The notes: generated from the letters alone by a model not told the origin. Shown: positions 1 to 25,358, counted from the first letter of the stretch. The stretch: DNA of 64,000 nucleotides from Patescibacteria group bacterium (GCA_041653675.1 JBAZEY010000003.1:13284-77283), one strand, 5' to 3'. A program made the numbers and translations.

Positions 1-650
1 TAATCACTCTTGTTTTTATATCTCTGGTCTCTTTATGGAGGGCGCCCATTAGTTTAGCCTTGATGAATTCTGAAAGCTATATTAATTGGATGGATTCCTT
101 AAATTTCGGGGGAGAAGAAACTTCTACCTCAACAAATTATAAATTTCAAGATACATTGGGGGAAATTGGAACAGGAAGAATTACAAGCACTAATTACGCC
201 GGATTGATAGGGTTTCGTCAAACTGAGTCAGACCCCAAAATGACTTTTACAATTTCTGGGAATACAATTGATTTTGGTACTTTAACCACAAGTGGTGTTT
301 CTTCTGACAGTATCACGATCACAACTACAACGAACGCAGTTGATGGTTACGTGACAACAATTTACGAAACGGAAAATTTAAAAACTTTGGGAAGTGCTGA
401 CATTGATGATGTGGCGGATGGAACCGTATCTGCCGGTTCAGAAGAATATGGAATTATAACTTCTGGTGCAGCCGGGCAGATGAATGGAGCTGACACAGCT
501 ATCACAACTTCGCCGCAGGCAGTAGCATTATATAGCAGCTGGGTGAACGGAAGCACGGTGACAATTACTTTTAAAGCGGCAATTTCATCAACGACAGGAG
601 CTGGTGCTTATTCACATGCCGTCACGTTGGTTTCCACTGGAAGATTTTAG
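1..650 (+). CDS. Secreted cell-surface protein, 5' end outside window (paralog of 681..1766)
   Basis: The frame stays open from nt 3, so the gene starts upstream of the window. The upstream translation ITLVFISLVSLWRAPISLA looks like a signal peptide. The C-terminal half aligns with 681..1766 (TFTISG...TTSTNAVGGY...AGSEE(Y/F)GI...STG(R/T)F end). It is Thr/Ser/Gly-rich. Confidence 0.6.
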   Translation, partial: ITLVFISLVSLWRAPISLALMNSESYINWMDSLNFGGEETSTSTNYKFQDTLGEIGTGRITSTNYAGLIGFRQTESDPKMTFTISGNTIDFGTLTTSGVSSDSITITTTTNAVDGYVTTIYETENLKTLGSADIDDVADGTVSAGSEEYGIITSGAAGQMNGADTAITTSPQAVALYSSWVNGSTVTITFKAAISSTTGAGAYSHAVTLVSTGRF

Positions 651-680
651 GATTACAATATATAAATAATTTTAAAAAAT

Positions 681-1766
681 ATGAAAAGGAAAATTTCAAA
701 CAAAAAAATTATTCAAATCACTGTCGTGAGTATGATTTTGTTTACGGTCTTTCCGCTTTTATCGGTTCATGCCGCGGCTTTGTCGAGCATCACGGACACG
801 CTAACTCGTTTAAAGGCCAGCACAGTTTCAAATCATACTATTAAGTTTGTCCAACTTACTGGCGTGGCTGCTGGACAAAAGGTAAAGGTAACTTTTCCGA
901 CGGGTTTTGCGATGGGTACAGTTGATTATACAGACGTTGATTTGGCTGAAGGCAGTACAAACAATTGTTCCTCGGCCGTCTTTACGGATAAAGTTTTAGC
1001 GGCAGCACCAACGGGCGCTACTTGGGGCGCGGTTGTTGCCGGACAAGTTTTAACTTTTACTTCTGATACGGACACAATTACTGCCGACAGGTGTGTTTTG
1101 GTTGAAGTGGGAACAAATGCGACGAGCGGCGGTGCAGGAGATCAACAGGTAACAAACTCTACTGCGGGAAATGATAAATTGATGGCCATAGCTACAACCA
1201 CGGCAGCTGACGCAGAGATTGATGCGGGCACTTTAGCTCTTTCAATTATTTCTGAAGATCAGGTAACGGTGACTGCCACTGTTAACGCGACTTTTACTTT
1301 TACTATTTCTTCAAGCTCTTGCGCTTTAGGGACGCTTTCAACTTCAAACGTCCAGACTTGTAGCGTAACCTTGACTACGAGTACTAATGCTGTCGGCGGC
1401 TATACCACTACAGTTGTGGGGACAGCTACTGGCGCTGAATTAGTGCACGCCAATTTAACGGACAATATTGATAATGCAACAGGAATTGAGGTTAATGCTG
1501 GGTCAGAAGAATTTGGAATAGGTACGAGTGATTCGGGGGTTGATATTGTAACGGAATCTGATTGCGCCGGAGCTGATGGGGGAGCTGCGGCTGATGCCGA
1601 ATCAATTGACACGGTTGGAGATAATACTGCCGCTTCAGTTGCCTCCGCGGCTGGTCCAGTTTCTGGTGATGCGACGACAGCTTGTTTTGCCGCTTCCATT
1701 GCCGGGTCAACCGTTGCCGGTTCTTACACCGCTACAACGACATTTATTTCTACTGGAACATTTTAA
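681..1766 (+). CDS. Secreted surface protein with an N-terminal SSITDTLTRLKAS domain shared with 2980..5247
   Basis: Signal peptide MKRKISNKKIIQITVVSMILFTVFPLLSVHAAA. The N-terminal domain is homologous to the N-terminus of 2980..5247, and the C-terminal half is homologous to 1..650. The C-terminus GSYTATTTFISTGTF may be WxL-like, which is speculative. Confidence 0.65.
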   Translation: MKRKISNKKIIQITVVSMILFTVFPLLSVHAAALSSITDTLTRLKASTVSNHTIKFVQLTGVAAGQKVKVTFPTGFAMGTVDYTDVDLAEGSTNNCSSAVFTDKVLAAAPTGATWGAVVAGQVLTFTSDTDTITADRCVLVEVGTNATSGGAGDQQVTNSTAGNDKLMAIATTTAADAEIDAGTLALSIISEDQVTVTATVNATFTFTISSSSCALGTLSTSNVQTCSVTLTTSTNAVGGYTTTVVGTATGAELVHANLTDNIDNATGIEVNAGSEEFGIGTSDSGVDIVTESDCAGADGGAAADAESIDTVGDNTAASVASAAGPVSGDATTACFAASIAGSTVAGSYTATTTFISTGTF

Positions 1767-1831
1767 TTTCTAAATTATTTTAAAATAACATACAGGCCGC
1801 GATATTTTTCACGACTTGTTAGGGGGAAGGT

Positions 1832-2821
1832 ATGAAAAATTTTTTTTTCGTGAGTACGCTCGCCGCTTTAATTTTTGCGCTAGCGCCGATTTCCGCATTT
1901 GCAATAACGGTTTCTCCGCCAATTATAGAATTTGATGCGCGGCCAGGAGACGTTATAGTGGATACTATAAAATTGTATAACGAAACAACAGAGGCCCAAA
2001 CTTTGAACGGGGCGGTGCAAACATTTAAAGCGTTAAATGAAACTGGCGCTCCCTCATTTCTTCCACCCGAGCAGTCGACTGATTTAGCGACTTGGCTAAA
2101 ACTCGATGAGTCCGCGGTTACCCTGAAGGCTGACGAGAGAAAAGATATTTTGTTTAGCATAAATGTTCCTGTTGATGCTGAACCGGGCGGCCATTATGCC
2201 GGAATTCTTTGGACGCCGGCTGGCACAACCACGCTTGAGGGCAGCGGGGTTGGTATCACCGTTAAAACTGGCACTTTGATTTTAGTCAGGGTCGCGGGTG
2301 ATATTACTGAAACAGGCCGGTTAATTAGTTTTACCGCCGACAAAACTTCTTACAATTATTTGCCCGCTAATTTTTCTGTCCGTTTTGAAAATTTAGGAAA
2401 CGTCCATTTGAAACCAGTTGGCACTATTGAAATCAGTAATTTATTGGGAAGAAAAGTTACCTCACTTCCGATCAACGGAGACCTGTCTAATGTCCTTCCA
2501 GATTCAATCAGAAAATTTGACGCGACTTGGCAAAAAACGGAAGAGCCTCTCGGCGCATCCGAATGGCAAAGAGAAAGAGAAAATTTTGCTTGGGGTAAAT
2601 ATACGGCGACTCTTAATTTAGATTACGGAGTGGAGGGGCAGAAAACTACGGCCTCACTTGTGTTTTGGGTTTTTCCGTGGCGCGTAACCCTTTTCTATCT
2701 CGCCATAGCTTTGGTCATAATTATTCTTATAATTATCGGTATCAAAAGTTACAATAAGTGGCTTATTAAAAAGTATAGCCAGGGAAATAGTCCGGTGGAT
2801 GATAAAAAGATTGAAGAATAG
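1832..2821 (+). CDS. Membrane-anchored cell-surface protein with DUF916/DUF3324-like architecture (N-terminal signal, C-terminal TM anchor)
   Basis: RBS GGGGGAAGG. Signal peptide, then ITVSPPIIEFDARPGD, and a C-terminal TM (FWVFPWRVTLFYLAIALVIIILIIIGI) followed by a basic tail. The size and topology match the CscA-type anchor proteins of WxL clusters. Family membership was not verified. Confidence 0.5.
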   Translation: MKNFFFVSTLAALIFALAPISAFAITVSPPIIEFDARPGDVIVDTIKLYNETTEAQTLNGAVQTFKALNETGAPSFLPPEQSTDLATWLKLDESAVTLKADERKDILFSINVPVDAEPGGHYAGILWTPAGTTTLEGSGVGITVKTGTLILVRVAGDITETGRLISFTADKTSYNYLPANFSVRFENLGNVHLKPVGTIEISNLLGRKVTSLPINGDLSNVLPDSIRKFDATWQKTEEPLGASEWQRERENFAWGKYTATLNLDYGVEGQKTTASLVFWVFPWRVTLFYLAIALVIIILIIIGIKSYNKWLIKKYSQGNSPVDDKKIEE

Positions 2822-2979
2822 TTCAATAATTTTATTGATGTCCTCTGATTTTTCGGAGGACAAAATAAGATCGTTGATGTTTCAAAAAACAAAAAACAAA
2901 AATCAAAAGTTATATTTTATTTTCTAGCTTCTCAAGCTTTTGACGTTTGTCTTTTGAGTTTTGAATTTATAGGAGGCGC

Positions 2980-5247
2980 ATGAAAAAATTAATCAAAAGA
3001 AAAGGCGTCGTAATCCTAATCGCGGTTTTTGTTTTGACTAGCCTTTTTACTATATATAATCAATCTGAAGCTAGTTCTCTTTCTTCGGTGAGTGATACTT
3101 TGAGCCGACAAAAGATTAGCGTGGCGGCTAATCACGAATTCGCTTTTACCTTGTCCTCGGGCACGACGGTCGTAGAAGATGAAACTATCACGGTAACATT
3201 TCCATCAACCTTTGCGTCGGGCCTGGATGGGATTGATTGCGGCGACATTGATTTATTAGAGGATTCTGTCCAAGAAAATTTAAATAATGAAGCCGGCGGT
3301 TGCGCGGCCACGGCGACGGAGTGGGGTGCGGCAGTCAGCGCGCGAATTTTGACTCTCACAGCGCCGTCTACGGCGGCAACCTATATGGATGCGAGTTCGG
3401 CCGTAATTATCCGGATTGGGGCAAACACTACGGAAGAAGGAGTGGGCGGAGAACAAATTATAAATCCTGCGAGTATTGGAAGCCACATAATTCATATAGG
3501 CGGAACATTTGGTGTTTCAAGTAATATTGCCATTGCCATTGTGACGGATGATCAAGTCGGTGTTGGCGCGAATATTAGCGCACCGACGGGCGGAGGCGCG
3601 CCTGGAACTGGTGTTACACCGCCGATTGTTTCAAATATAAGAGTTGAAAATATTCTTCAAACATCAGCAACTGTTCTTTGGGATACCAACGAACCCGCGA
3701 CTTCAGTTGTAAATTATGGCTTATCAAATAGTTATGGATCAAGCGCGACGGGTGATGTTGGCGGATTGGTAACGAGCCACAGAGTTGATTTGTCGGGGTT
3801 GACCGCCGATGCGATTTATCACTTTCAAATAGTAACAGCCGACGCGGGAGGAGCCGCGACAACCACGGGCGACGATGTCTTTGAAACTCTTTCCGGTCCG
3901 GATATAACTCCTCCGACGATTTCCGGTATTAGCGCGATCAATATAACACAAGTTGGAGCTACTGTTATTTGGACAACCAACGAACCAGCGAATTCAAAAG
4001 TAGAATACGGCTTAACTGACGCGTATGAGTTGGGAGAAGTAAGTGCCACAGATTTTGTCACGTCGCATAGTTTGGCGGTTTCAGGACTTTTGGAAAATAC
4101 AACTTATCATTTCCGCGTGACCTCGGCCGATGCTTCGGGCAATACGACGGTCTCGGGCGACAATACTTTTGTAACCTTGGCTCCGCCTGACGCGATTCCT
4201 CCGATTATTTCAAATATCAGAGTTATCAATATTACAGAAACATCGGCGACCGTAACTTGGGAAACAGATGAACGAACTACCTCCCGCGTGAGATTTGGGT
4301 TAACGGGTACTTATACCGCGGGTAATATTTTTTCCGCAGATTTGGTCACGACGCATAGCGTTAATTTAAGTTCCTTGACTCGGAGCACGCTCTATCATTT
4401 TGAAGTTTCTTCAGTTGATGGTTATGGCAATACTACGACTTCCGCGGATCAGATTTTTTCTACTTTACCCGACGCGATTCCTCCGGCCAACGTTACGGAT
4501 TTCACGGCAGTTCCAACGGCGGATTTAACAATACTTTTGAACTGGATAAATCCAGCCGATCCGGACTTCGCTGGGGTTTTGATAAAGAGAAGTTTTACGG
4601 ATTATCCGGCAAATCCCACAGAAGGCGAGATAGCCTTTGATGGCATGGCGACTTCATTTGAAGATACTAGTATTACACCCGCTAATTATAATCAGCCAAT
4701 TTATTACACAGCTTTTGCTTATGATGCGGCTGGAAATTTTGCTTCGGGCGCTATGGCAGAAGCGACAATCTCGGCTGAAATTACTTTGGAGGTTAAGGCT
4801 TGGCCAGAAAAAAGATGGCCGCGGAGCGGGAACTGGTCAACGGATGGTACGATTGAAATGCGGGAACCAGCAGATGGGACCGTTGTAGACGAGGGCACGG
4901 TTACAACTTCTGATCTTGGACAAGGCACGATTCGATTTGCTTCAACTCCCGTCGGAAACTATGATATCGGTTTTAAGGGTTTGTCTCATTTGCGAAAAAT
5001 TTTGCGCAATGTCCCGCTTGCGAGCGGCGTAAATTCTGTAGATTTTACTTTAGGAAATATTTTTTATCTTTTAGCCGGAGACGTGCATCGCTCGTCTGAC
5101 AATGTAGTAAACGCTTTGGATATTTCTACTTTGCTTGGTGCTCTTTCTACCAGTAATAATGTTGTTGACTTAAATAATGATACTGGGGTTAATTCTTTGG
5201 ATATAAATATCTTGTTGGCTAACCTAATGAAGGTTGGAGATAATTAA
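2980..5247 (+). CDS. Large secreted protein: shared N-terminal domain, four FN3/PKD-like repeats and a C-terminal dockerin-like module
   Basis: RBS AGGAGG. Signal/TM at the N-terminus. Four repeats of about 97 aa (PPI(V/I)SNIRV...T(V/A)xW(D/T)TNEP...YHF...) at nt 3616-4790. The C-terminus carries two Ca-binding-loop-like segments, DVHRSSDNVVNALDISTLL and a canonical DLNNDTGVNSLDINILL. Confidence 0.7.
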   Translation: MKKLIKRKGVVILIAVFVLTSLFTIYNQSEASSLSSVSDTLSRQKISVAANHEFAFTLSSGTTVVEDETITVTFPSTFASGLDGIDCGDIDLLEDSVQENLNNEAGGCAATATEWGAAVSARILTLTAPSTAATYMDASSAVIIRIGANTTEEGVGGEQIINPASIGSHIIHIGGTFGVSSNIAIAIVTDDQVGVGANISAPTGGGAPGTGVTPPIVSNIRVENILQTSATVLWDTNEPATSVVNYGLSNSYGSSATGDVGGLVTSHRVDLSGLTADAIYHFQIVTADAGGAATTTGDDVFETLSGPDITPPTISGISAINITQVGATVIWTTNEPANSKVEYGLTDAYELGEVSATDFVTSHSLAVSGLLENTTYHFRVTSADASGNTTVSGDNTFVTLAPPDAIPPIISNIRVINITETSATVTWETDERTTSRVRFGLTGTYTAGNIFSADLVTTHSVNLSSLTRSTLYHFEVSSVDGYGNTTTSADQIFSTLPDAIPPANVTDFTAVPTADLTILLNWINPADPDFAGVLIKRSFTDYPANPTEGEIAFDGMATSFEDTSITPANYNQPIYYTAFAYDAAGNFASGAMAEATISAEITLEVKAWPEKRWPRSGNWSTDGTIEMREPADGTVVDEGTVTTSDLGQGTIRFASTPVGNYDIGFKGLSHLRKILRNVPLASGVNSVDFTLGNIFYLLAGDVHRSSDNVVNALDISTLLGALSTSNNVVDLNNDTGVNSLDINILLANLMKVGDN
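3616..4790 (+). repeat. Four tandem FN3-like coding repeats (about 290 nt each)
   Basis: Near-identical nucleotide stretches (ccgccgattgtttcaaatataagagtt at about 3616 and cctccgattatttcaaatatcagagtt at about 4198) and the corresponding protein repeats. Confidence 0.7.
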
Positions 5248-5265
5248 TCATTAGATTTATATATT

Positions 5266-7905
5266 ATGAGGAGGATAATTTACACGATCGCCGCAGTTGG
5301 ATTTAGTTTTTTTCTTGGCCATGCCGTCTTGGCCGCTCGTTTTGAATTATCTCCGGCTACAACAGGATTTATTACTGGCTGTGATTCGGCAGTAAACATT
5401 GAAATTAATACCGAGGGAGAAACTTCTGATGCCGCAAATATTTTGATTCATTATAATCCCGCGCAAATTGAAATTGTTGATTCTAATCCCGCAGCGGGTG
5501 GAGTTCAAATAAGAAATGGCAATGCGTATGAAGCATATGCTGATAATATTGTTTTGCCGGCTGAAGGATTGATTCGCTTAACAGGATTTTCTTTTTTGGA
5601 ACAGCTTACCGGCCAGGCTACTTTGGGCACAATTATTTTCCGTCCGCGAGCGGGCGCGGCCGGTACGGACATCACGATAGAATATGTTGCTGGCAGCACG
5701 ACCGATAGTAATGTTGCTGAATATATAACAAGCGATGATCTTTTGACTGGCGTAACAAACGGTTCTTATACCTTCCGCGGCGGTTCTTGCGTGGCTGATG
5801 TCACGCCGCCGAATGTCACAAATCCCGATCCGACGCCAGATGAACATGATGTGCCGCTTGATTCAAATGTTACTTTTGACATTCACGACAGCCAATCAGG
5901 AGTTGATCTTGATACATTAACCATAAATGTTGACGGCGTCGTTTACACGCGAGACGGCGTAAATAGATTTTCTTTTGTCGGGACACCTGAATCGTATGCG
6001 GTAGCAATTAATCCAGATGCGGATTTTACTCCGGGTGCCACGGTTCTTGTAGAAATCAATGCAGCAGATTTATCAGGGAACGCGATGACGGCTTATCGTT
6101 ATATCTTTAATCAGCCGGCTGGACCTCCACTCATTCCGCCATCTTGTGAGGCTCTTGGTTGCGCCGCTCCCGCCGCTTGCACGGCCGAGCCGGTTCTTCC
6201 GGAAGACATTGCAGAGGAACCGACCGTTCCGGAATCACAAGCCCTAGATCTTGAAGATTTTTCTTTTTACGTGGCTGACGGCACCCTCAAAATTTATCCA
6301 ACAAGAAGCGGAGAACTTGTCACTTTATTAAATTCACCGCTTGTCTTTTCTATTTCTGAAAGTAAATTTCCACGTGAAGTAGAAAGGGTCGCTCTGACAA
6401 TGAACGGATTTTCTTACCTTTTGGGTTATAGTGATCAGGCTGACGCGCGGCAAACAACAATTCAAACGCCGCCCGGAGCTGGTCGCTTGGCATTTTCAAT
6501 TTTGATTGATTATATTGACGGAGCCCACGACAGAGTTGATGGGACGCTCAATCTTTTATCTAAAGGTTTTATTTGGCAAGGAACAACAGCCGGTAAATTA
6601 GCCGGAGCTAAAGTAACTCTTTATGAAGAGTACGCCAGCTTCCGCGTTTGGGATGCTGCTCCTTACCATCAAATCAATCCGCAAACAACTGATTCTTCTG
6701 GCCAATTTTCTTTCTTGGTTCCTCCTGGCCGTTATTATTTGCTTGTTCAAAAAGATGGATACCGCGATCAAGCTACTACGGTTTTTGAAATAGCCAACAA
6801 TGTTGTGAATCCTGGCGTGGAAATTCTTGTCGTTCCGCCGACGTTTGCCGAGGTCTGGGATCCGGCTGCGCCAGTCACGGAAAATATTCAGAATGTCGCC
6901 CAAAATATTGGTGAAAAAACAATTTATGCTACCGAAGTTATTCGTAAAGATGTTTTGGATAATCCCGAAGTAGAAAAAACAAATGAAAGCATTGCCGCGC
7001 CGGCCGTGGCCGCAGTGGCAATCGTAAGTTATGGGACAGCGATTTCTCTCGGTTCACTTTTGCCATTTTTACAATTACTTTTTACTCAACCCATCCTTCT
7101 CCTTTTTCCAAAAAGACGAAAAGGCTGGGGCATTGTTTTTCATTCTTTATCAAAAATGCCGGTGGATCTTGCGATTGTCCGGCTTTATGAAAAAGTTACC
7201 GGCCGACTCGTGCAGACTCGCGTTACCGACAAAGAAGGCCGCTTTGCTTTCTTTGTTCAGCCGGGCCAATATTTTATCAAAGTTGTTAAACCGAATTTTT
7301 CTTTCCCGACGGGATATTTAAAAAATAAAAAAGAGGATGTTAAATATTTAGATCTTTATCACGGCGAAGAGATTACAGTGACGGAAAAAAATACGCTTGT
7401 CACACCGAATATTCCGATTGATCCGGTGGAAGCGGAGCGCGGCAAACCGGATAGGAGAATTGTTCTCGCGCATTTTGGCAGAAAAGTTCAAAATGTTGCC
7501 GCCCTCTTGGGAGTTATCTTCGCTGCAATTTCAGTTTTAATTTCTCCAAAACTTTGGATGGTGGGAATTTTGATTGGCCATTGCTTGCTCTACATACTTT
7601 TCCGAAGGCTCGCTCGCAGCAGAAAACCAAAAAGCTGGGGCATTGTTTATGAAACGAAAACTAAAGCGCCGGTCGGCCTTACCGTGGCAAGAATTTTTGA
7701 AACCGAATATAACAAGTTGCTTGAAACTCAAGTTACCGATGGTCGAGGCCGTTACGCGTTCTTGGTTGGAAATAGTTCTTATTATGTGACTTTCAGCAAA
7801 CCGGGATTTTCGCCAAAACGGACGGAAACAATTGATCTCCGCGGAAGAAAAGAAGGAGCAGCAGTGGGATTGGACGTGGGGTTGGACTTAGAAAAAACAT
7901 CATAA
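5266..7905 (+). CDS. Membrane protein: N-terminal cohesin-like domain, Ig-like (Big) domain, three CarboxypepD_reg-like beta-sandwich domains and 2-3 TM segments
   Basis: Signal peptide. FELSPATTGFITGCDSAVNIEINTEGE...ILIHYNPAQIEIVDSNPAAGGVQIRNG follows the cohesin pattern (f.l.YDp..lE.v.v..G). The stretch VTPPNVTNPDPTPDEHDVPLD...TLTINVDG is Ig-like. CarboxypepD_reg-like domains are KVTLYEEYASFRVWD...SSGQFSFLVPPGRYYLLVQKDGY, and a duplicated unit KRRKGWGIVFHS...AIVRLYEKVTGRLVQTRVTDKEGRFAFFVQPGQYFIKVVKPNFSFP versus SRKPKSWGIVYET...TVARIFETEYNKLLETQVTDGRGRYAFLVGNSSYYVTFSKPGFSP. Each unit is preceded by a TM helix. Confidence 0.6.
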   Translation: MRRIIYTIAAVGFSFFLGHAVLAARFELSPATTGFITGCDSAVNIEINTEGETSDAANILIHYNPAQIEIVDSNPAAGGVQIRNGNAYEAYADNIVLPAEGLIRLTGFSFLEQLTGQATLGTIIFRPRAGAAGTDITIEYVAGSTTDSNVAEYITSDDLLTGVTNGSYTFRGGSCVADVTPPNVTNPDPTPDEHDVPLDSNVTFDIHDSQSGVDLDTLTINVDGVVYTRDGVNRFSFVGTPESYAVAINPDADFTPGATVLVEINAADLSGNAMTAYRYIFNQPAGPPLIPPSCEALGCAAPAACTAEPVLPEDIAEEPTVPESQALDLEDFSFYVADGTLKIYPTRSGELVTLLNSPLVFSISESKFPREVERVALTMNGFSYLLGYSDQADARQTTIQTPPGAGRLAFSILIDYIDGAHDRVDGTLNLLSKGFIWQGTTAGKLAGAKVTLYEEYASFRVWDAAPYHQINPQTTDSSGQFSFLVPPGRYYLLVQKDGYRDQATTVFEIANNVVNPGVEILVVPPTFAEVWDPAAPVTENIQNVAQNIGEKTIYATEVIRKDVLDNPEVEKTNESIAAPAVAAVAIVSYGTAISLGSLLPFLQLLFTQPILLLFPKRRKGWGIVFHSLSKMPVDLAIVRLYEKVTGRLVQTRVTDKEGRFAFFVQPGQYFIKVVKPNFSFPTGYLKNKKEDVKYLDLYHGEEITVTEKNTLVTPNIPIDPVEAERGKPDRRIVLAHFGRKVQNVAALLGVIFAAISVLISPKLWMVGILIGHCLLYILFRRLARSRKPKSWGIVYETKTKAPVGLTVARIFETEYNKLLETQVTDGRGRYAFLVGNSSYYVTFSKPGFSPKRTETIDLRGRKEGAAVGLDVGLDLEKTS

Positions 7906-7991
7906 AATTCAATACTTCATACAAAAAAATCAAAAAAGAAAAAATAAAAAAGTCGAAATAAAAAGCAAAAGCAAAAACAAAAAGTACCCAT

Positions 7992-10900
7992 ATGTTTAGT
8001 TCAGGAGGAGAAAAACCTAATATTAAATTACCATCCCAAAGCGGAACCAACTTAACTTTGTTGGTGTTTGCTTTGGGTATTTTGTCATTAGCAAGTATTG
8101 GAGTAATGACTCTTTCTGTTGTGAAACAACTTCGGCCGACAGCGTTCACGGCAATTAATAAACAGCTGAACTATCAAGGTAAATTACAAAACGCGGGAGG
8201 CATAACGCTCGCGGACGGAAATTACTCAATGAAGTTTTCCATTTACGACGATCCAACCGTCGGCTCGAGACTTTGGACAGAATGTGGCACAGTCGGTACG
8301 CCGACGGCTCGTACCGTCGCGGTTGCGAACGGGGTTTTCTCGGTGATGCTCGGAGATACAAATTCCAATTCTTGTCCCGGTGGAACGGATTCCAACGCCA
8401 TCACACTGGATTTTAATAGTGACAGTTATTATCTTGGTTTTACCGTGGAGTCCGATTCAGAAATGCTTCCGAGAAAACGATTGGGTGCTTCGGGTTACGC
8501 TTTCAACGCGGATTTATTAGACGGATTTAATACTTCAGCCGCCGGCGGTTCGGTCGCTTTCGTGCCGGTGACGGACGCAAGCGGACATTTAACTTTGACG
8601 CAAAATTTAATTTTGGGTGGAGTTTTAAAAAATGCAGACGGTACTGTCGGCGCGCCGAGCTATACCTTCACGAGCGACCTTGATACAGGACTTTATTATT
8701 CAGCGACACAAATAAATATTGGTGTCGGCGGAAGCACGGTGGCAAATGTAAGCGCTTCGGGTTTAGCCGTAGATACGGTCAAAACTTTAACCGCGACGAC
8801 TTTAACTTTAAAAGGCACGGTTGCCGACGGCGGAACAGCTGTTGGCGCGACGATTGGTTCCAACAGTACTCTTTCTACTACCGGCGCGAAACTTGCTTCC
8901 TTTGTAAACAACACTACTGAGAAAGCATATATAGATAAAGATGGTTATTGGAACGCCCCTAATGGTGCGGCTGGCACTCCTTCAATTACTTTTGCAAATG
9001 ATAAAGATAATGGATTTTTTTATTCTTCCGCTAATAATTGGCGGGCGGTTGCTAACGGAACTGCTATTTTAGAATTTGATGCAAGTGGCATTTATGTTGG
9101 TGGTTCAGGAAACATAGGGTCAGGTAATAATATTACTCTTACTCTTAAGAGTTTTCAGGTCGATGGTGCCGCAAATGTTGCAGTTGCTCAGGATACTTAT
9201 TATGCGTTTGTAACTGCTGGAGCTAAACTTTTTTCTTGGAAAAATCATCAAGTTGAAAAAGCATATGTTGATTATCTAGGCTCGTTCAACGCCGGAGCGG
9301 GGACAAATCTTTTACCAGCGTATTCGTTTGTTGGCGATCCAAATACTGGAATATATAATCCGAGTGCAGACCGTGTAGATTTAGTCGCAGGAGGAACCGT
9401 TCAACTCGCAATAACCTCTGGCACTATTTATTTTGATAATATGAGGGCTTTGAACTTGGTGAGTCTTGGATTAAGAGGGGCGATTGCCGACGGAGCAAGT
9501 GCGATCGGCACAAAAATGGGAAATGCTATAGCTCTTACCACTGCTGGAGCAAAGATTGTAAGTTTTTATAATGATGCTTGGGTAACTGAAAAAGCATATA
9601 TTGATAAAGACGGAAATTTTTATGGCCCCGGGGCAAATTTTTCCGGTCTCTCTGTCTCGTCGGCTGTTTATACCGACGCTTCAAAAAATTTAACTTCTAC
9701 AGCTCCGGCCACGGGCACGATTGGATATTGGTCCCGCGCCACGACAACTTTGTCTCCAGCTACAGCCAATGATATTGTCGCGGTCACCGGCAACTCCGGA
9801 GATCTTTTAACTTTAACTTCAACCGCAACCGGCGCTTCTAACAAAGCTTTAAGTATTGCCGCTTCCGGCGCAACAGTTGGCACAGATTACGGCGCATATA
9901 TTTCAAATACCGGCGCGGCCACAACAAATGTCGGTCTCTACACGACCGCCTCTGGCGCAACAAATAACTACGCTGCGATTTTTGACGCGGGGTATGTTGG
10001 TATTGGTAATACAACTCCAACAGCGTCTTTGACTTTAACTCAGGCTGCCGGCACGACTGGCACTCCCTCAGCTTTTATTATTACGGGGGGTGCTCACACC
10101 GGAATAACTGCGGCGACAGAAGATATTGGGGTGAATTTAAATTTTTCAGCGAATAAAACTTGGGCGGCCGGCGCCGGACCATTGGCCACTCAAAGGGAAG
10201 TCGTGGTTCAAGCCCCAACTTATATTGGTGATGTAGGCGGAGCATTGACCATGACTGATGCGGCGACATTCTATATCTCTGGTGCGCCTACGGCCGGGGC
10301 GAATATGACTATTAGTAATCCGTGGGCATTATGGATTGATGCCGGAAATGTTAGACTAGATGGAAATTTAAAAGTAGATTCACTTTCCGCTTCCTCCGCT
10401 GTTTATACTGACGCTTCCAAAAATTTAACTTCAACCCCGCCTGCTACGGGCGCGATCGGATATTGGTCTCGTACCGGCACGACTCTCTCTCCCGCGACGG
10501 CGAATGATGTGGTTAATGTCGATTCCAATACTGTGGGTGCAGCTATTAGTTCTACGGCGACGAATAGTGGCGCGGTTGCAAACTCTGGCGGTAATTTTTT
10601 GGCTGCCGGAACTAGCGGAGCAATGGGCGTTTATGGTGGCGCGAGCGGCGCTGGCACGGTTTACGGTGTTTATGGCCAAGCTTCTAATCCTGGGGCAGTA
10701 ACAAATTATGGTGTTTATGGAACGGCCGCCGGAGATACGGGCGTCGGTGTTTTTGGCTCTGCTACGGACACTGGCGCAGCTATAAACTACGGCGGTTACT
10801 TTACGGCCGCTGGAACGGGTGGCGCAGTTGGTATTTATAGTGAAGCGACTGGAACTGGCGGTGCGGCTGTTTCCGGTCTAGCTAGTGCTACTACCAGTGC

Positions 10901-15438: not shown

Positions 15439-17829
15439 CATATGTTTGATTACAAAGAAAAAAAGATTTCTCGGCAGCCAAAACGCAGAAAAACAAAATT
15501 GCGCCCTCTGGTTTTAATTTTAGGGATTTTTGCCGTGGCAAGTCTTGGTATTATTGCTATTGCCTTGTTGAAAAATTGGAGTTTTCCAGCTTCCGCAGCG
15601 CCAGGAATTTATAAGGTTTTAAATTACCAGGGAAAATTAGAAGATTCAGGCGGAGTTACGGTAGCTGATGGTGCATACAATATTAAATTTACAATTTACG
15701 ACGCAGCCGCGGCAGGAAATGTCCTTTGGTCTGCCCGAGAATCGGATGCTTGCGGCGCGGCTTTTAATCCTGCGGTAAAATCAGTCACAACTTCGCTTGG
15801 CGTATTCTCTACCCAACTTGGTGAGTCGGGTGATTGTCCGTTGAATTTAGATTTTAATAGTGATTCATATTATCTCGGCATAACCATTGGCGCTGATTCA
15901 GAAATGACTCCGAGAAAACGTATTGGCGCGGCCGGTTACGCTTTTAATGCGGATTTATTGGATGGTTTAACCACCTCTCTGGTCGGCGGCGCCTCTTCTT
16001 TTGTTCCCGCAACTGACGCTTCAGGAAATTTAGTTTTAACCGCCAATGTTACTTTTGACACACCCACTTTTTTTCTTGATTCTACTAATGATAATATTGG
16101 TATTGGTACCATTACACCAACCGCGACTCGTACCCTGGATTTAACGACGGCGAAAAAATATGGCATTTATGCCTCCTCAAGCGCGGCCATAAACCACATG
16201 GCGGTAATTTATGCCGAGGCAACGGACACAACAAACGTTGATCAGATGGGCGGATATTTTTCTTCAGCGAGTCCGAGCGGGAAGGGCGTTTATGGGGCAG
16301 CGGTTACAACGGGAAATCCGCTTGTCGCGAACCAGGGAGGATATTTTACCGCGGCTGGTGATTCGGGGCAGGGTGTTTATGGCGAAGGTTCAGCCTCTGG
16401 CGCTGTGACAAATTACGGGGGATATTTTGTGACACAAGGCGATACAGGATATGCAATTAGGGGCTTGGCTATGGCTACGGGTGGCGTAAACTATGGCGGA
16501 TATTTTAGAGCAAATGGTCCGGGCGGCTATGGAGTTTATGGCTACGCGGCGGATGCAAGTGCAGTGGCAAACTACGGCGGATATTTTACGGCAGCGGGTA
16601 CAGGCGCGGGAACAAGCGGTGTTTACGGTTTGGCATCGGGGGCTGGGGCAGTTTATGGTGTTAGAGGAGAAGTTTCAAACGCAACCGCAGTAACAAACTA
16701 TGGTGGATATTTTACCGCGGCTGGCAGTGGAGCTCTCGCGAGCGGTGTTTACGGAGAGGCTACTGCCGCCGGTTCAGTTATAGGTGTTAGGGGTTATGCG
16801 TCAGACCTTACTGCCGGAATTACAAATTATGGCGGATATTTTTCAGCTCAAGGCGGTACAGCCCGTGCCGTTTTTGGTGATGCCACCAATAATGGAGCAG
16901 AAATAAACTATGGAGGATATTTTACAGCGAGAGGAAGTGCTGTTGGCACCTCTGGAGTTTATGGGGAGGCGAGCGCGTCGGCTGCAGTCTACGGCGTTTA
17001 CGGAAAAGCTACTGACACTGGCGCGGTCGCGAATTATGGCGGATATTTTACTGCGGCTGGCGAGGACGGCGCTGCAGTTTATGGCGCAGCTACATCTGCG
17101 GCTGGCACGGCGAACAATGTAGGCGGATATTTTACGGCGGCGGGAGGTGGCGCAGATGCTTACGGCGTTTACGCTACTGTTACTGGGGGCGGCAACAACT
17201 TTGGTATTTATGCAAGTACGATATCAGCTACTGGCTGGGCTGGGTTTTTTAACGGTGGCAGGGGAATTTACGCTCTTCGTTTTTCAATTAATGACGGCAT
17301 CACCGTGGTTGATTATAATACCATTGGTCCGGCCCTTGCAGGTCACGTTGCGGCAGGAGAAATTACCGATCAGAACGATCTTTTCATTAATGGTAACTTG
17401 GAAGTTGACGGTGCCGTTTGGCTTGATGGTGGGCATACTGATTTGGCAGAAATGGTGGCGTATAGCGGAGAGGGTGAAGCCGGCGATGTTGTTGTGGTTG
17501 ATGAAAATAACGATAACTCGGCAAAGATTGCGGCCAAACCTTATGACCAAAGTATTCTTGGTATAATTTCTACCAAGCCGACATTGGTCATCACGGGTGA
17601 TATCACGGAAGGAAAATTAATGGCCGTAGCCGGCCGCGTCCCAACCAAGGTGACAAATATAAATGGAGCAATTCATCGTGGTGACCCGCTCACAACTTCT
17701 TCTTTGCCCGGTTACGCCATGAAGGCAACTGAAGCAGGGCCGATTGTTGGAAAATCTTTAGGTGAATGTGACCAACAAGAATGCGTCATTTGGGTTTTCT
17801 TAAATGTCAGTTGGTACGGAGGAATATAA
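15439..17829 (+). CDS. Paralogous anchored surface fiber-like protein (about 800 aa)
   Basis: N-terminal TM (LVLILGIFAVASLGIIAIALL). The same post-TM conserved domain (LNYQGKLEDSGG...YYLGITIGADSEMTPRKRIGAAGYAFNADLLDG), the NIGIGTITPTATRTLDL motif, about 15 NYGGYFTAAG repeats, and the shared C-terminal module (DLAEMV...LGIISTKP...AGRVPTKVTNINGAIHRGDPLTTS...AMKAT). Confidence 0.75.
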   Translation, partial: HMFDYKEKKISRQPKRRKTKLRPLVLILGIFAVASLGIIAIALLKNWSFPASAAPGIYKVLNYQGKLEDSGGVTVADGAYNIKFTIYDAAAAGNVLWSARESDACGAAFNPAVKSVTTSLGVFSTQLGESGDCPLNLDFNSDSYYLGITIGADSEMTPRKRIGAAGYAFNADLLDGLTTSLVGGASSFVPATDASGNLVLTANVTFDTPTFFLDSTNDNIGIGTITPTATRTLDLTTAKKYGIYASSSAAINHMAVIYAEATDTTNVDQMGGYFSSASPSGKGVYGAAVTTGNPLVANQGGYFTAAGDSGQGVYGEGSASGAVTNYGGYFVTQGDTGYAIRGLAMATGGVNYGGYFRANGPGGYGVYGYAADASAVANYGGYFTAAGTGAGTSGVYGLASGAGAVYGVRGEVSNATAVTNYGGYFTAAGSGALASGVYGEATAAGSVIGVRGYASDLTAGITNYGGYFSAQGGTARAVFGDATNNGAEINYGGYFTARGSAVGTSGVYGEASASAAVYGVYGKATDTGAVANYGGYFTAAGEDGAAVYGAATSAAGTANNVGGYFTAAGGGADAYGVYATVTGGGNNFGIYASTISATGWAGFFNGGRGIYALRFSINDGITVVDYNTIGPALAGHVAAGEITDQNDLFINGNLEVDGAVWLDGGHTDLAEMVAYSGEGEAGDVVVVDENNDNSAKIAAKPYDQSILGIISTKPTLVITGDITEGKLMAVAGRVPTKVTNINGAIHRGDPLTTSSLPGYAMKATEAGPIVGKSLGECDQQECVIWVFLNVSWYGGI
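16240..17260 (+). repeat. NYGGYF 20-aa tandem repeat region of the paralog
   Basis: Same period and consensus as 10590-13060. Confidence 0.8.
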
Positions 17830-17929: not shown

Positions 17930-18059
17930 TAATTGTAAAATTAGAGATGGAGATTAAGTGAAATTTGCTTTAAAATAAAGGATAAAGCCAATTTCAGGTG
18001 ACCTTCAACTTTTGGAGAACAACCGTTCCGCGAGAGGGCGGAACAAGGAGGATTTAGTG

Positions 18060-18665
18060 ATGAAGACGACGATGATCGCGATGGTGCTTGTTTCCGTGTT
18101 CGCGACTGGCTGCTGGGATAGCTACCAGAACTACGGCGAAGACACTTCGCCCCTCGCGACTTGCGAGGTCGAGGTGACGACGAACGTGGTCGAGGTGGTG
18201 ATCACGGTGGACGGCGTCGTGATCGGTGGCGTTGCGGAACTCGCGACGGGCATGCACACTTTCGCTGCTACGGCTCCCGGGTATTACCCGGCAAGCGTGG
18301 TTGCGGAAGTAACCGAAGCATGCGCTCCGGTCGAACTCCAGCTCTTCCCGGATCTCGCCGGTGACTACGATCTCGTGCTACACAATAGCATCTATGATCG
18401 GCTGCTGCTCCACCTCGACCAGGATGAGGAAGGCAACCTCGTCGGCTACGACTGGTACACTGATGATCCGGGACACAGCTTCCAGGATTTCACCGGCACT
18501 GTTTCGTTCGATGGAGAAGTTCATCTCCTCTCGGACGATTCGGTCCGGCTGAATCTCACTGGCCGCTGGACTCCTCCGGGAATTGGTGGCGTCAGCCGTA
18601 TCGTCGGCAACTGGACCTCCGCTGCGGGAGGCGACGGAGACTGGCTCGCCGAGTCGCGACCGTAG
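18060..18665 (+). CDS. GC-rich lipoprotein with a PEGA-like domain
   Basis: RBS AAGGAGG 10 nt upstream. Lipoprotein signal MKTTMIAMVLVSVFATGC. The segment VVITVDGVVIGGVAELATGMHTFAATAPGYYPAS fits the PEGA pattern. About 60% GC against a roughly 40% background. Confidence 0.6.
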   Translation: MKTTMIAMVLVSVFATGCWDSYQNYGEDTSPLATCEVEVTTNVVEVVITVDGVVIGGVAELATGMHTFAATAPGYYPASVVAEVTEACAPVELQLFPDLAGDYDLVLHNSIYDRLLLHLDQDEEGNLVGYDWYTDDPGHSFQDFTGTVSFDGEVHLLSDDSVRLNLTGRWTPPGIGGVSRIVGNWTSAAGGDGDWLAESRP

Positions 18666-18676
18666 GTTACGACTCG

Positions 18677-18736
18677 AACCGGCATCTGGCAGAAATCGTG
18701 AAGAACGATTCTGTCGGATGCCGGTGTTTTTATTTC
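18677..18736 (+). terminator. Long imperfect hairpin plus T-run; copy 1 of a duplicated 58-nt element
   Basis: ccggcatctggcagaaatcg tgaagaa cgattctgtcggatgccgg followed by tgtttttatttc. Near-identical to 20278-20336. Confidence 0.6.
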
Positions 18737-18834
18737 AGAAAATCTAAAGAAGCACGCCTTGACTTTTGAGACATAATATATATGATAACGGCATAGATGG
18801 TCGGCTAGAGGTAGCCGACACAAGGAGGAGAAAG

Positions 18835-20184
18835 ATGAAAAAGGGGAACGGAAGGATCAAGGGGCTCTTTTTGATCGTCATCGCGACGATCGCGATTCTC
18901 GCCTATGCCGCTTGTGGCGACGACGAGCAGTTGTGTCCCAGCGCAGGGGACTGCATGGGACGGGAGTGCGGGCCGGATCCGGTTTGCATGACATCGTGCG
19001 GTGCATGCTCAATCGGAGAAGCATGTTCGGCGGACGGGATATGTATGCCGGACTGCGTGTCCAACTGCGCCGGCCGCGAGTGCGGATGGGACCCGGTCTG
19101 CGGCAACATGTCTTGCGGGACATGCCCGGCGGATCGGCCCAACTGCAATGCCACTACGGGGACTTGTTCGACTGATGGCCCGGATTGTCCGGCAGACCGC
19201 GACTGCGCCGGCCGCGAGTGCGGCCTCGATCCAATCTGCAGCGTTTCCTGCGGGACGTGTTCGGGCGGTGAGACGTGCAGTTCATCAGGAAGATGTGTTT
19301 GCGCTCCCAACTGCTCCGGCCGCGAGTGTGGGCTTGACCCAGTTTGTAGCGTCTCCTGCGGGACGTGTTCAAGCCCAGAGACATGCACTCCATCTGGAAC
19401 GTGCAACTGTACCAGGAACTGCGCCGGCCGTGAATGTGGTCCCGATCCGATTTGTGGCGTTTCCTGCGGCTCGTGTTCAGCTGGCTCATGCACCACGACG
19501 GGCACGTGCACCACGTGTTCATCCGGCGCAACGGAGTCGTGCGCCAATCTTTGCGGTTCGGCTGGCACGCGGAGTTGTAGTGTTTCGGGCGAATGGGGGC
19601 GGTGTCAGGGTGGGACTGCTCTGGTTCCTGTGGCTCTTACGGATGACACCTACATCGACAACGACCCCCCAACTGTCAACCACGGAACCGAAGAATTCGT
19701 GATCATAGGAAAGGGCGTTGCCGCTGACCCACGTCGCCTAGCATTCTTCCGTTTTGATGCGGATTTGGATACGTGGCGGGCGGAGGGCGCCACGTCGATA
19801 ATTCAGGCCGACCTGAGCGTATACGTGAGTGACCGCTTAGGCAGTCAACTTGAACTCTATGGTCTCTCAAATACGACCGGTGGTACTTGCGTGTGGAATG
19901 AAGATACACTGACGTATTACACCCAAGTCACCGCAGGAAGCACGAACTGCTATCCGGACCCGCTTGGCTGGGTCTACCCCGACATTTCGATGATTGTGGA
20001 TTACTCGATGGGCTACGTGGATATCACGGCGTATGTCCAGTGGCTTTGGGACGGCGCGGAGAACGACGGCTTCATGTTGACGAACAATTCGGGGAGTTCC
20101 ACTCCGTTTGCACGGTTGATTATCAACAGCACCGAGAATTCCCGGGATCCACCGAGCGTTTTGGTGAGAGTATCCTGCGAATAG
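18835..20184 (+). CDS. GC-rich secreted/lipoprotein: about 7 Cys-rich repeats (C..GRECG.DP.C..SCG.CS) plus a C-terminal DNRLRE-like domain
   Basis: RBS AAGGAGGAG. Signal LFLIVIATIAILAYAAC. Repeats such as DCAGRECGLDPICSVSCGTCSGGETCSSSGRC. The C-terminal domain carries the DNRLRE-family landmarks (DDTYIDNDPPTVNHG..., RLAFFRFDADL, WNEDTLTYYT, VDITAYVQWLWDGAENDGFML, INSTENSRDPPSVLVRV). Confidence 0.6.
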   Translation: MKKGNGRIKGLFLIVIATIAILAYAACGDDEQLCPSAGDCMGRECGPDPVCMTSCGACSIGEACSADGICMPDCVSNCAGRECGWDPVCGNMSCGTCPADRPNCNATTGTCSTDGPDCPADRDCAGRECGLDPICSVSCGTCSGGETCSSSGRCVCAPNCSGRECGLDPVCSVSCGTCSSPETCTPSGTCNCTRNCAGRECGPDPICGVSCGSCSAGSCTTTGTCTTCSSGATESCANLCGSAGTRSCSVSGEWGRCQGGTALVPVALTDDTYIDNDPPTVNHGTEEFVIIGKGVAADPRRLAFFRFDADLDTWRAEGATSIIQADLSVYVSDRLGSQLELYGLSNTTGGTCVWNEDTLTYYTQVTAGSTNCYPDPLGWVYPDISMIVDYSMGYVDITAYVQWLWDGAENDGFMLTNNSGSSTPFARLIINSTENSRDPPSVLVRVSCE

Positions 20185-24116: not shown

Positions 24117-25358
24117 CTAGCCAGGGATAAAAAGTAAGATTTCTCGCCGAACGAACTGGTCTGGGCGGAAGTAGAGGATGGAGTTACGAGGCGTGGTTTT
24201 TAAAAATGAATATTTTCTTAATTCTTTTGGCAGAGGATCGGCAACAGTAAAGCCGATTTTTTTTATTTCATCTAAAATTGGTAAAAAGAAATCTTGTTTT
24301 TCTGTATGAAAAACAGGGAAGATAATAGAAATTTTTCCCTCTGGCCTTATAATTTTTTTGAATTCTTGAAAAGCAGCTAAATACAAATCGGAAAGCTCTT
24401 TCATAGTTTCTTTTATTTTTTCCAGCGGTTCATCTCCTTTAAGCGGCGGTCCGAGATATGGTTCGCTAATAATCGCGTCGATTGATTGAGGGGGAAATTT
24501 ATTGGAGAGGTGGTGTACATCGCACTCCAGTAATTGATAATCGGCAGTTGGCAGTTGATAATTTTTTTTCAGCCACTCCAAGTTTTCTCTTGCTCCTGAT
24601 AGAGTTTCGGTGTTGACGTCCGAGCCAATCAAATTTTTATATCCCCAAAGCAACGCCTCTTCCAAAATTGTTCCAAAACCGCAGAAAGGATCGAGGATTG
24701 TCTCGTCTTTTTCAACCTTCGCGAAGTTTATCATGGTTTTAGCGAGTTTCGGCGGCATGAGCCCAACCTTCATACTGCGAGCCGGCCGGCCGTAATCGCG
24801 AAAACTTAAGTCCTCAAATTCTTGGACAGCCAAAGTTTTGCCAAGATAAGTTTTTTCTTTACCTATCAAAAAAATTAATTCGGCACCGGCTTCAGTCAAT
24901 AATTTATTTTTCTTAACCACAACAGAACTTAAATTATTCTCTTTTGAGGTTACCCACCTAGCTTGGATTTTTACGTCTTTAAGCAAATCTTTAATCGCCA
25001 TAGCCAGATTTTTTATTTTCTGACTTTCTTTTTTAAGGCGCGCAGTGGAAACATCTTCTTCTAATTTATAGAAACTAAAGCCGAAATAAATTTTTTTTGC
25101 TGAATAATTTTTTAATATTTCAGCAATGTCTTCGGCGGCTAATTCATCCGGCATTTCAAGAATTTTTCCGAATTTAACCGTACCGCCAAGACGCGGCATA
25201 ACGTCGTTTGCGGAAAGTTCACCCTGAATGTCAACCAAAATAGCCTCGTCCGAGAGAGAAGAAAAGGTCGCTCGTTTGCCAAAAATAGCAGCGATTTCAG
25301 CGCTTGACAAAGCTGGATTTCTGCCTAAAATAAAAAAGTATTGCATATTGGTGGACAT
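24117..25358 (-). CDS. Putative RNA (guanine-N2) methyltransferase, THUMP/UPF0020 family
   Basis: SAM-binding motif ILDPFCGFGTILEEA, and RPARSMKVGLMPPKLAKTMINFA typical of Trm11/RlmL-type enzymes. Confidence 0.55.
   Translation of the reverse strand: MSTNMQYFFILGRNPALSSAEIAAIFGKRATFSSLSDEAILVDIQGELSANDVMPRLGGTVKFGKILEMPDELAAEDIAEILKNYSAKKIYFGFSFYKLEEDVSTARLKKESQKIKNLAMAIKDLLKDVKIQARWVTSKENNLSSVVVKKNKLLTEAGAELIFLIGKEKTYLGKTLAVQEFEDLSFRDYGRPARSMKVGLMPPKLAKTMINFAKVEKDETILDPFCGFGTILEEALLWGYKNLIGSDVNTETLSGARENLEWLKKNYQLPTADYQLLECDVHHLSNKFPPQSIDAIISEPYLGPPLKGDEPLEKIKETMKELSDLYLAAFQEFKKIIRPEGKISIIFPVFHTEKQDFFLPILDEIKKIGFTVADPLPKELRKYSFLKTTPRNSILYFRPDQFVRREILLFIPG

Follow-up and report, generated by a model that had tools for sequence, protein, structure and literature searches.

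We analysed 64,000 nucleotides of genomic DNA from a Patescibacteria group bacterium (GCA_041653675.1, JBAZEY010000003.1:13284-77283; this whole stretch is called the window here), which opens with six co-directional open reading frames (ORFs) on the + strand, P1 to P6. They are separated by short gaps and form a five-gene set followed by a giant sixth ORF, and each of the six products begins with a hydrophobic, signal-like segment. In our judgement the locus is likely to be a divergent pam-type pilus operon of a bacterium of the Candidate Phyla Radiation (CPR), in which usher-less, chaperone-assisted donor-strand exchange would build the fibre and the P4–P5 pair would form its docked base. 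What the data show directly are homologies, domain architectures and a gene order kept in related loci. The locus belongs to the known Pam kind; what is new is its divergence beyond the reach of NCBIfam naming, a different end module, and a context in which no ATP synthase genes were found.

The Pam pilus was described by Troman et al. (bioRxiv, 10.64898/2026.03.03.709456) in Candidatus Mycosynbacter amalyticus (Saccharimonadia), where PamA and PamB were solved by cryo-electron microscopy (cryo-EM); the NCBIfam models NF058579 (CPR_pilus_PamT) and NF058581 (CPR_Pam_pilin_C) derive from that preprint. According to the same source, the N-terminal sandwich of PamA and PamB has nine strands, and one linker strand joins it to a C-terminal domain of truncated immunoglobulin (Ig) type. 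Each subunit gives this linker to the C-terminal domain of its neighbour; linker and binding site are the most conserved parts, and three cysteine pairs were reported in PamB. PamT is the C-terminal domain alone and sits at the tip; PamC and PamD are PapD/FimC-like chaperones with a C-terminal transmembrane (TM) helix, predicted to strand-complete the pilin C-terminal domain; PamR, with an N-terminal strand, two fibronectin type III (FnIII) domains and a TM helix, is both terminator and tether. A 'tail fibre-like protein' was co-localised with the pam operons, and their ATP synthase context was conserved. The first-pass annotation of our stretch had likened the genes to the WxL/Csc (cell-surface complex) loci of Firmicutes and had held that such loci were not described in CPR-like genomes. 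The 2026 preprint, the NCBIfam models and existing DUF916 names at NCBI make the latter statement outdated.

The pilin-like proteins P1 and P2

The five ORFs P1 to P5 were found where the first-pass annotation had placed them, all on the + strand. P1 (1-650, +; 215 aa within the window) is cut at its 5' end by the window edge and lacks 12 codons in comparison with an 81%-identical, 227-aa homologue in the related locus L001, to which it aligns from residue 13 of the latter. Past the signal peptide and a short N-terminal extension it has one domain, the C-terminal (acceptor) domain of pilins, and it is a candidate PamT-like tip pilin. P2 (681-1766, +; 361 aa), a putative two-domain major pilin, starts with a signal peptide; its N-terminal beta-sandwich (about aa 33-190) is connected by a linker to the Pam pilin domain that makes up the C-terminal part (aa 205-361). 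The two proteins have their C-terminal half in common, as had been noted before: the identity is 36% over 157 residues (BLAST, E=2e-15) and both sequences end with STG(R/T)F. P1 aligns to the C-terminal domain of P2 only, without its N-domain or linker.

The best NCBIfam match of P1 was NF058579 (E=1.1e-17, 64.3 bits), and it also matched NF058581 (E=2.2e-9, 37.5 bits). P2 matched NF058581 with E=9e-12 and 45.3 bits over profile positions 2-148 of 148. When diverse homologues of P2 were examined, 52 of the 53 matched this model, the best with E=5e-43, and no Pfam match was obtained for either P1 or P2. Judged by these profile matches, the common C-terminal domain of P1 and P2 is the Pam pilin C-terminal domain.

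The AlphaFold2 (AF2) model of P2, with a predicted local distance difference test score (pLDDT) of 91.7, contains two beta domains, and the residues between them (about aa 191-204) are unstructured in the monomer. In this part lies DQVTVTATV (aa 193-201; 1257-1283, +), which is the most conserved 9-mer of the 53-sequence P2 family and is modelled as coil between the strand 179-190 and the C-terminal domain. Its conservation, the model and the analogy with Pam suggest that this stretch may be the donor strand. In addition, the six cysteines of P2 co-occur as three pairs across the family.

It could be argued that these are unrelated secreted proteins of low complexity which resemble each other through composition only, and indeed they are rich in Thr, Ser and Gly. 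The E-values of 2e-15 given above and of 5e-19 for P2 and P4 (see below) come, however, from composition-adjusted BLAST statistics, and there are hundreds of homologues with conserved columns, confident fold predictions and a conserved gene order, so this explanation is already refuted and we regard it as practically out of the question. Sortase-dependent pili were also considered and rejected: P1 and P2 have neither an LPXTG motif nor a C-terminal TM helix at their STG(R/T)F ends.

P3 and its WxLIP relatives

P3 (1832-2821, +; 329 aa) would be the membrane-anchored chaperone of the pilus. By AF2 (pLDDT 88.6) and hydropathy, a hydrophobic signal segment at the N-terminus is followed by two Ig-like beta-sandwiches and, at the C-terminal end, by a TM helix (aa 283-317; 2678-2782, +) with a hydropathy peak of 3.13 at residues 286-304; the signal peptide and the C-terminal anchor are thus both present, as the first-pass annotation had it. 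When searched alone, P3 matched PF06030 (WxLIP_PGBD, formerly DUF916) with E=0.006 and 17 bits, under the cut-off of 27.3. The same model was matched by 36 of 54 diverse members of the P3 family, with a best E=5e-7, and in a search of PDB sequences with the family profile the top match was EfmWxLIP1 (9i1y, 9i25; E=0.005). PF11797 (DUF3324) was matched by none of the 54 members at E<=0.01. The proposal that P3 is built in the DUF916/DUF3324 manner was therefore borne out for DUF916; DUF3324 was not detected by sequence. Some homologues of P3 already carry the NCBI name 'DUF916 domain-containing protein [Patescibacteria group bacterium]'.

The predicted structure gave a similar picture. The entries 9i25, in which WxL (chain A) of E. 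faecium is bound to WxLIP (chain C), and 9i1y, WxLIP alone, are crystal structures released on 2026-01-28; a literature search found no accompanying paper. In a Foldseek search of the PDB with the P3 model, the top three matches were these E. faecium WxLIP chains (9i25_C, 9i1y; E=4e-12 to 3e-11). With 9i25_C ('WxLIP ... bound to long WxL') the E-value was 3.8e-12, and the alignment covered 251 columns including gaps, against a chain of 251 residues, and spanned both domains. The next matches were CfaA, CsuC, YadV, FimC, DraB, Caf1M, PapD, SafB and EcpB (E=1e-9 to 1e-7); target-normalised TM scores against the chaperone-usher chaperones were about 0.5-0.58. Because Foldseek ranks the WxLIP chains first and the chaperone-usher chaperones after them, P3 is, by sequence profile and predicted fold, a true relative of DUF916/WxLIP and at the same time a membrane-anchored protein with a chaperone-usher-like fold.

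Residues 133-142 are the sole segment of the P3 model with pLDDT <50 and stand directly before the strand 146-154, the last strand of domain 1. The profile alignment sets this loop (aa 130-145) opposite a stretch of WxLIP. In WxL clusters, the gap in the WxL sandwich was predicted to be closed by a hairpin of DUF916 (PMC10599100). By analogy, aa 130-154 of P3 (2219-2293, +) may be the strand that fills the groove of the pilin, and its loop may be equivalent to the WxLIP hairpin loop.

The kinship of P3 raises the question of whether the locus is a WxL/Csc-type surface complex instead, in which P1 and P2 would not polymerise and would be held at the envelope by a WxLIP-like P3 completing their C-terminal sandwich, for adhesion or for substrate binding. 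The closest sequence and structure relatives of P3 are indeed the E. faecium WxLIP proteins. By definition, a WxL cluster combines one WxLIP with two proteins that have the same C-terminal domain, one of them small and without further domains, the other larger and with N-terminal domains in addition (PMC10599100), and the one WxLIP-like protein found here beside a small and a large protein with a common C-terminal domain fits this definition; the hairpin prediction and the solved WxLIP–WxL complex 9i25 also speak for such an arrangement. The pilin-like proteins themselves point the other way. It was found that none of the 53 members of the P2 family matches the WxL model PF13731 at E<=1. P1 and P2 themselves gave no match to it in a Pfam scan, and no W-x-L motif occurs in either protein. 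When the Pam C-terminal domain was compared by hhalign with a WxL alignment, the probability was 0.5% (E=0.11, 14 columns), similar to unrelated controls; the WxL alignment was shallow, with 9 sequences from enterococcal WxL loci, and the homologue search gave 6 proteins. The sole stretch aligned was the C-terminal AGsYtxTvTyI against kGaFqaTLsWT. It lies at the position of the motif G(S/A)YTATTTFISTG that had been suggested as a W-less WxL analogue, a suggestion that finds no significant backing here. Furthermore, the matches of P1 and P2 are to Pam pilins, and the proteins on which those models were founded are seen as filaments by cryo-EM; the most conserved stretch of P2 is its linker, which fits strand donation between subunits and not a monomeric surface protein. 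CPR envelopes are not obviously comparable with peptidoglycan anchoring in Firmicutes either. Altogether, we consider a WxL/Csc-type complex unlikely and a Pam-type pilus the better description of the locus.

The WxL/Csc-like organisation first proposed for this locus thus stands for P3, which is of WxLIP type, and for the parallel set of genes, and finds no support for the common C-terminal domain, for which the sequence tests of WxL identity were all negative. The WxL/Csc clusters of Lactobacillales and Bacillales resemble our locus in that P3 is homologous to WxLIP (DUF916-DUF3324-TM) in sequence and in structure, and in that three kinds of gene are adjacent: one for a small protein that is a single domain, one for a larger protein that has the same domain at its C-terminus, and one for a TM-anchored protein with two Ig domains. 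The enterococcal locus L006, for instance, encodes in this order a small WxL protein (224 aa, confirmed by PF13731), a WxLIP (344 aa) and a large WxL protein (816 aa). In both systems a strand of the anchored protein is proposed to complete the sandwich of its partner. The two differ in that P1 and P2 have neither the WxL motif nor similarity to PF13731, and DUF3324 is undetectable in P3 by sequence; WxL proteins are taken to be surface proteins bound to peptidoglycan and not to form filaments, and neither a conserved inter-domain donor linker nor dockerin or cohesin genes are known there.

The Pam-type chaperone is nevertheless a relative of WxLIP/DUF916 and in this way ties the WxL/Csc clusters of Firmicutes to the biology of pili built by strand complementation; the tie runs through one component, the chaperone. 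The preprint on Pam does not mention WxL or DUF916, and among the matches listed in a full-text literature search there was no paper that connects DUF916 with CPR or Patescibacteria. One may speculate that WxL/Csc clusters and Pam pili are two branches of one ancient usher-less system of single-membrane cells, in which a TM-anchored, PapD-like chaperone (WxLIP, PamC/D, P3) completes truncated Ig domains and hands them over. The WxL domain would then be the Firmicutes counterpart of the Pam C-terminal domain, WxL proteins would perhaps be assembled by strand complementation or exchange themselves, and the cohesin–dockerin tether would have been recruited in the present lineage. We hold this idea to be possible and rather more doubtful than probable.

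According to their source names, the homologues of P2 all come from Patescibacteria (CPR) lineages, except for one protein (P0220) labelled candidate division WOR-3. Similarly, one homologue of P3 (P0023, about 61-63% identity) is labelled Candidatus Bathyarchaeia archaeon. Both labels are probably binning errors, or else they reflect transfers out of CPR.

P4, P5 and the proposed assembly of the fibre

We compared seven loci whose P3 homologues have 40-77% identity (L001, L002, L003, L004, L007, L008 and L009). In all seven of them a pilin or PamT gene lies directly upstream of the chaperone gene, and in four a dockerin/cohesin module follows 3' of it. In L001, which belongs to a related 886-kb genome, the order of the five genes is the same as in the window, and a giant gene homologous to P6 follows; the gene order is thus conserved in relatives, which the first-pass annotation had set as a check. 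L002 (Kerfeldbacteria), L004 and L008 have a giant gene, a pilin, the chaperone, a dockerin protein and one or more cohesin proteins. L007 has a PamT-like gene, the chaperone, a protein with FnIII and CarboxypepD_reg domains, and a giant. The order in L003 and L009 is PamT, pilin, chaperone, further pilins and large Kelch or LamG proteins; the pilin gene stands between PamT and the chaperone, and PamT there scores 132-139 bits on NF058581, above the cut-off.

P4 (2980-5247, +; 755 aa) is a candidate terminator or base subunit of the pilus. The reuse of the N-terminal SSxSDTLxRxK domain of P2 in this protein, reported earlier, could be reproduced: residues 1-199 of P4 and 1-201 of P2, with the SSxSDTLxRxK start included, are 31% identical (BLAST, E=5e-19). 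P4 and P2 have no more in common than this pilin N-domain and the start of the linker. After the N-domain, P4 continues with a divergent linker-like stretch and with three FnIII domains, where Pfam matched both fn3 and Pur_ac_phosph_N three times (E=2e-17 and 4e-20); more beta domains come next, and the C-terminus is dockerin-like. The linker-like stretch, IVTDDQVGVGANISA, keeps the inward V.V.A.I pattern. No match to the NCBIfam model Pam_pilin_C was found in P4, i.e. it is without an acceptor domain, and by hydropathy it has no TM helix at the dockerin-like end. The dockerin-like module (aa 700-748; 5077-5223, +) is indicated by a match to Dockerin_1, by an alignment with a related locus and by its second repeat, DLNNDTGVNSLD, which as read from the sequence fits the 12-residue Ca-binding loop; the first repeat is degenerate.

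P5 (5266-7905, +; 879 aa), a polytopic membrane protein, may serve as the anchor or platform for P4. It has an N-terminal cohesin-like domain (aa 23-175; 5332-5790, +), a Big_5 domain, three CarboxypepD_reg-like beta-sandwiches (Pfam, E=6e-18) and two hydrophobic hairpins (aa 575-613 and aa 741-783), and it is homologous to a 799-aa protein of L002 (E=9e-39). Its first 185 residues belong to a large family with 1039 representatives at E<=1e-3. Out of 36 sampled members of this N-domain family, 21 matched Cohesin, the best with E=3e-11, and the top PDB matches of the family profile were cellulosomal scaffoldin cohesins (5aoz, E=0.009; 1g1k; 2vn5).

The related loci are informative about this pair. 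L002 encodes, in order, a giant, a pilin, the P3 homologue, a 274-aa protein, a 380-aa protein and the P5 homologue. The 274-aa protein matches Dockerin_1 with 35.5 bits and the 380-aa protein matches Cohesin with 26.2 bits, both above the Pfam thresholds, and residues 700-746 of P4 are 40% identical to the L002 dockerin (E=3e-4). Because of these above-threshold modules in a related locus, the dockerin and cohesin reading of P4 and P5 is much stronger. By analogy with known systems, P4 may be the terminator or base of the pilus, docked through its dockerin-like end to the cohesin of the membrane anchor P5. We also looked at short dockerin proteins of L002 and L004, in which VNISAVVEE and VSISAVVQDP by eye resemble VTVTATVDP of the pilin linker and might be an initial donor strand. 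The linker hidden Markov model (HMM) did not retrieve them, and they were dropped.

One could also imagine a cellulosome-like or carbohydrate-binding surface scaffold in which cohesin–dockerin, FnIII and Ig domains organise secreted proteins for the binding or degradation of polymers. The dockerin-like module in P4 and the cohesin-like domain in P5 are in line with this, as is a 472-aa ORF with the carbohydrate-binding module CBM96 at 18766-20184, about 11 kb downstream of the operon, and csc clusters were proposed to serve carbohydrate utilisation (PMC1534035). As in cellulosomes, the P5 cohesin-like and P4 dockerin-like modules are encoded side by side, and they may pair; unlike in cellulosomes, no enzymes are attached here, the pair is part of a pilus operon, and the first Ca-binding repeat of P4 is degenerate. 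Scans with Pfam and NCBIfam found no glycoside hydrolase or other catalytic domain in P1-P6. The CBM96 gene lies outside the conserved block, and in four related loci cohesin and dockerin genes go together with genes for the pilin and the chaperone. We regard such a scaffold as highly improbable.

For a Pam-type pilus we propose the following assembly. We reason here by analogy with the PamA/B structures and models and with chaperone-usher pili, both for the filament as such and for its order of assembly, the strand donated by P3 and the docking of P4 to P5. All products would be exported by Sec, and the pilus would be built on the outer face of a single membrane. P3, held by its C-terminal helix, would cap the groove in the truncated Ig C-terminal domain of each pilin with its aa 130-154. 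P1 would start the fibre at the distal tip, because it has an acceptor domain only. P2 subunits would then be added at the base in turn, and the DQVTVTATV of each would go into the groove of the subunit before it. P4, with its pilin N-domain and divergent linker-like stretch, would be incorporated only last, because it has no acceptor groove, and would end growth; its linker-like stretch would act as the donor. The dockerin-like end of P4, lying past three FnIII spacers, would bind the cohesin of P5, and the two hairpins of P5 would tether the fibre to the membrane. In this way the P4 and P5 pair would stand in for the single TM-anchored PamR.

The likeness to the Pam pilus extends to the tip pilin that consists of the C-domain only (P1), the two-domain pilin with a conserved linker (P2), the three Cys pairs in P2 and PamB, and the two Ig-like domains and C-terminal TM helix of P3. 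In both systems there is no usher and all components carry signal sequences, the last component contains FnIII domains (P4) and a large fibre-like protein adjoins (P6). The differences are that one pilin and one chaperone are present here, whereas PamA/B/E and PamC/D are found in the described system; that P4 has a whole pilin N-domain and a dockerin-like end where PamR has a TM helix; and that a cohesin-bearing polytopic protein, P5, is part of the operon. The lineage also differs: ours is nearest to Patescibacteria of the Falkowbacteria/Kerfeldbacteria type, while the prevalence of Pam was highest in Saccharimonadia and Microgenomatia (10.64898/2026.03.03.709456). The chaperone-usher pili (Pap/Fim, Caf1, Csu, CFA/I) share with the proposed system the fold of P3, the logic of donor-strand complementation and exchange, a tip subunit without a donor strand and a last subunit that ends growth. 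They differ from it in having an outer membrane and an usher, which are missing here, where the chaperone is anchored in the membrane; the donor here is an inter-domain linker and not an N-terminal extension, and the pilin has an extra N-terminal domain.

Several observations weigh against a Pam-type pilus. The scores of P1 and P2 lie under the curated NCBIfam cut-offs, which are 240 bits for NF058579, a PamT equivalog model (64.3 bits for P1), and 55 bits for NF058581, a domain model (37.5 and 45.3 bits for P1 and P2). For this reason P1 and P2 are, on sequence grounds, divergent relatives of the Pam proteins and not equivalogs. In a Foldseek search of the PDB the P2 model retrieved generic two-domain Ig adhesins only, with no Pam pilin among the 50 matches listed, nor did the P2 profile find a Pam pilin structure among PDB sequences; taken together, these results indicate that a Pam pilin structure is apparently not in the PDB set searched. 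NCBIfam has no model for a Pam chaperone, and P3 was likened to PamC and PamD by their described architecture, not by sequence. No PamR-like protein with an N-terminal strand, two FnIII domains and a TM helix is present in the operon. The linker of P4 matched the linker HMM weakly (E=0.05). The match of its aa 706-748 to Dockerin_1 (PF00404) is sub-threshold (E=0.036, 14.7 bits; cut-off 22.9), and so is the match of the P5 domain to Cohesin (PF00963; E=0.0029, 18.2 bits; cut-off 24.1). Pfam found no ATP synthase gene among the 20 downstream ORFs of the window with at least 150 aa. Finally, no filament has been seen in this lineage.

P6, neighbouring genes and implications

P6 (7992-15230, +; 2412 aa) is a giant repetitive protein and the operon's neighbour. 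It has an N-terminal hydrophobic segment, long Gly-rich repeats of the 'NYGGYF..A.G' type, a Pro/Glu/Ala-rich tail and a module of about 130 aa that is duplicated near the C-terminus; the guanine-plus-cytosine (GC) content reaches 0.51 across the ORF. Among protein families it matched NF053851 alone (Bdello_MAT_N, a fibre protein), and that weakly (E=0.0015); searches of PHROG and of PDB sequences gave no match. The label 'tail-fibre-like' is used for P6 because of the preprint and this one weak NCBIfam match. Giants homologous to P6 lie 3' of the operon in L001 and L007, and the upstream giants of L002, L004 and L008 showed no BLAST similarity to it. P6 may be an associated fibre or adhesin, and its membership in the operon is uncertain.

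In scans for promoters and terminators, positions 1-8200 gave a result no better than shuffled sequence. Downstream of the operon, genes for YchF, a class II aminoacyl-tRNA synthetase, EF-P, RecA, FtsK, UvrABC and PNPase were identified with Pfam; no CorB or MFS genes were present among the downstream window ORFs scanned. The roughly 8 kb examined upstream in L001 contained no ATP synthase genes.

Some of the related loci have features of their own. In L003 (1-3647 and 13121-17308) and L009 (9609-11794), we noticed extra proteins with a motif like that of the pilin linker, V.ITATLDPSISL, among them one of 723 aa and a Kelch beta-propeller protein of 967 aa; in the big proteins the motif is matched weakly (E=0.015 to 3). 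L009 also encodes two additional pilins that match Pam_pilin_C. The sequences suggest that the extra proteins of these two loci are 'large pilins' with adhesin-type N-terminal domains. Directly 3' of the pilus operon of L002 (15671-18347) are a serine recombinase gene and a gene of the phage-integrase family, which hints at mobility of the region. In L001 a DUF559 (endonuclease-like) gene lies between the P5 homologue and the giant (16062-16409); it is absent from the window.

In the rest of the window, the region 18001-20000 has a GC content of 0.58, compared with about 0.43 around it, and contains the 472-aa CBM96 ORF as well as overlapping long ORFs on both strands. Two methyltransferase genes were seen, one at 24117-25358 (-) with a UPF0020 (RMKL-like methyltransferase) domain and a sub-threshold N6_N4_Mtase match, the other, an N6_N4_Mtase DNA methylase, at 60505-62190 (+). 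For neither of them was a restriction partner identified in the ORFs scanned.

Pam pili are the sole CPR-specific surface filament described so far and are thought to mediate the first contact with the host. The present locus suggests that the Pam system reaches lineages similar to Falkowbacteria and Kerfeldbacteria in a form missed by the current NCBIfam cut-offs. The end of the fibre and its tether would differ from known Pam, through a dockerin on the last subunit and a cohesin on a membrane protein. As a relative of WxLIP with a chaperone-usher-like fold, P3 offers a testable bridge between three systems so far studied apart from one another. For the enigmatic WxL clusters of lactobacilli, enterococci and Listeria it points to a possible mechanism, namely strand complementation by a membrane-anchored chaperone.

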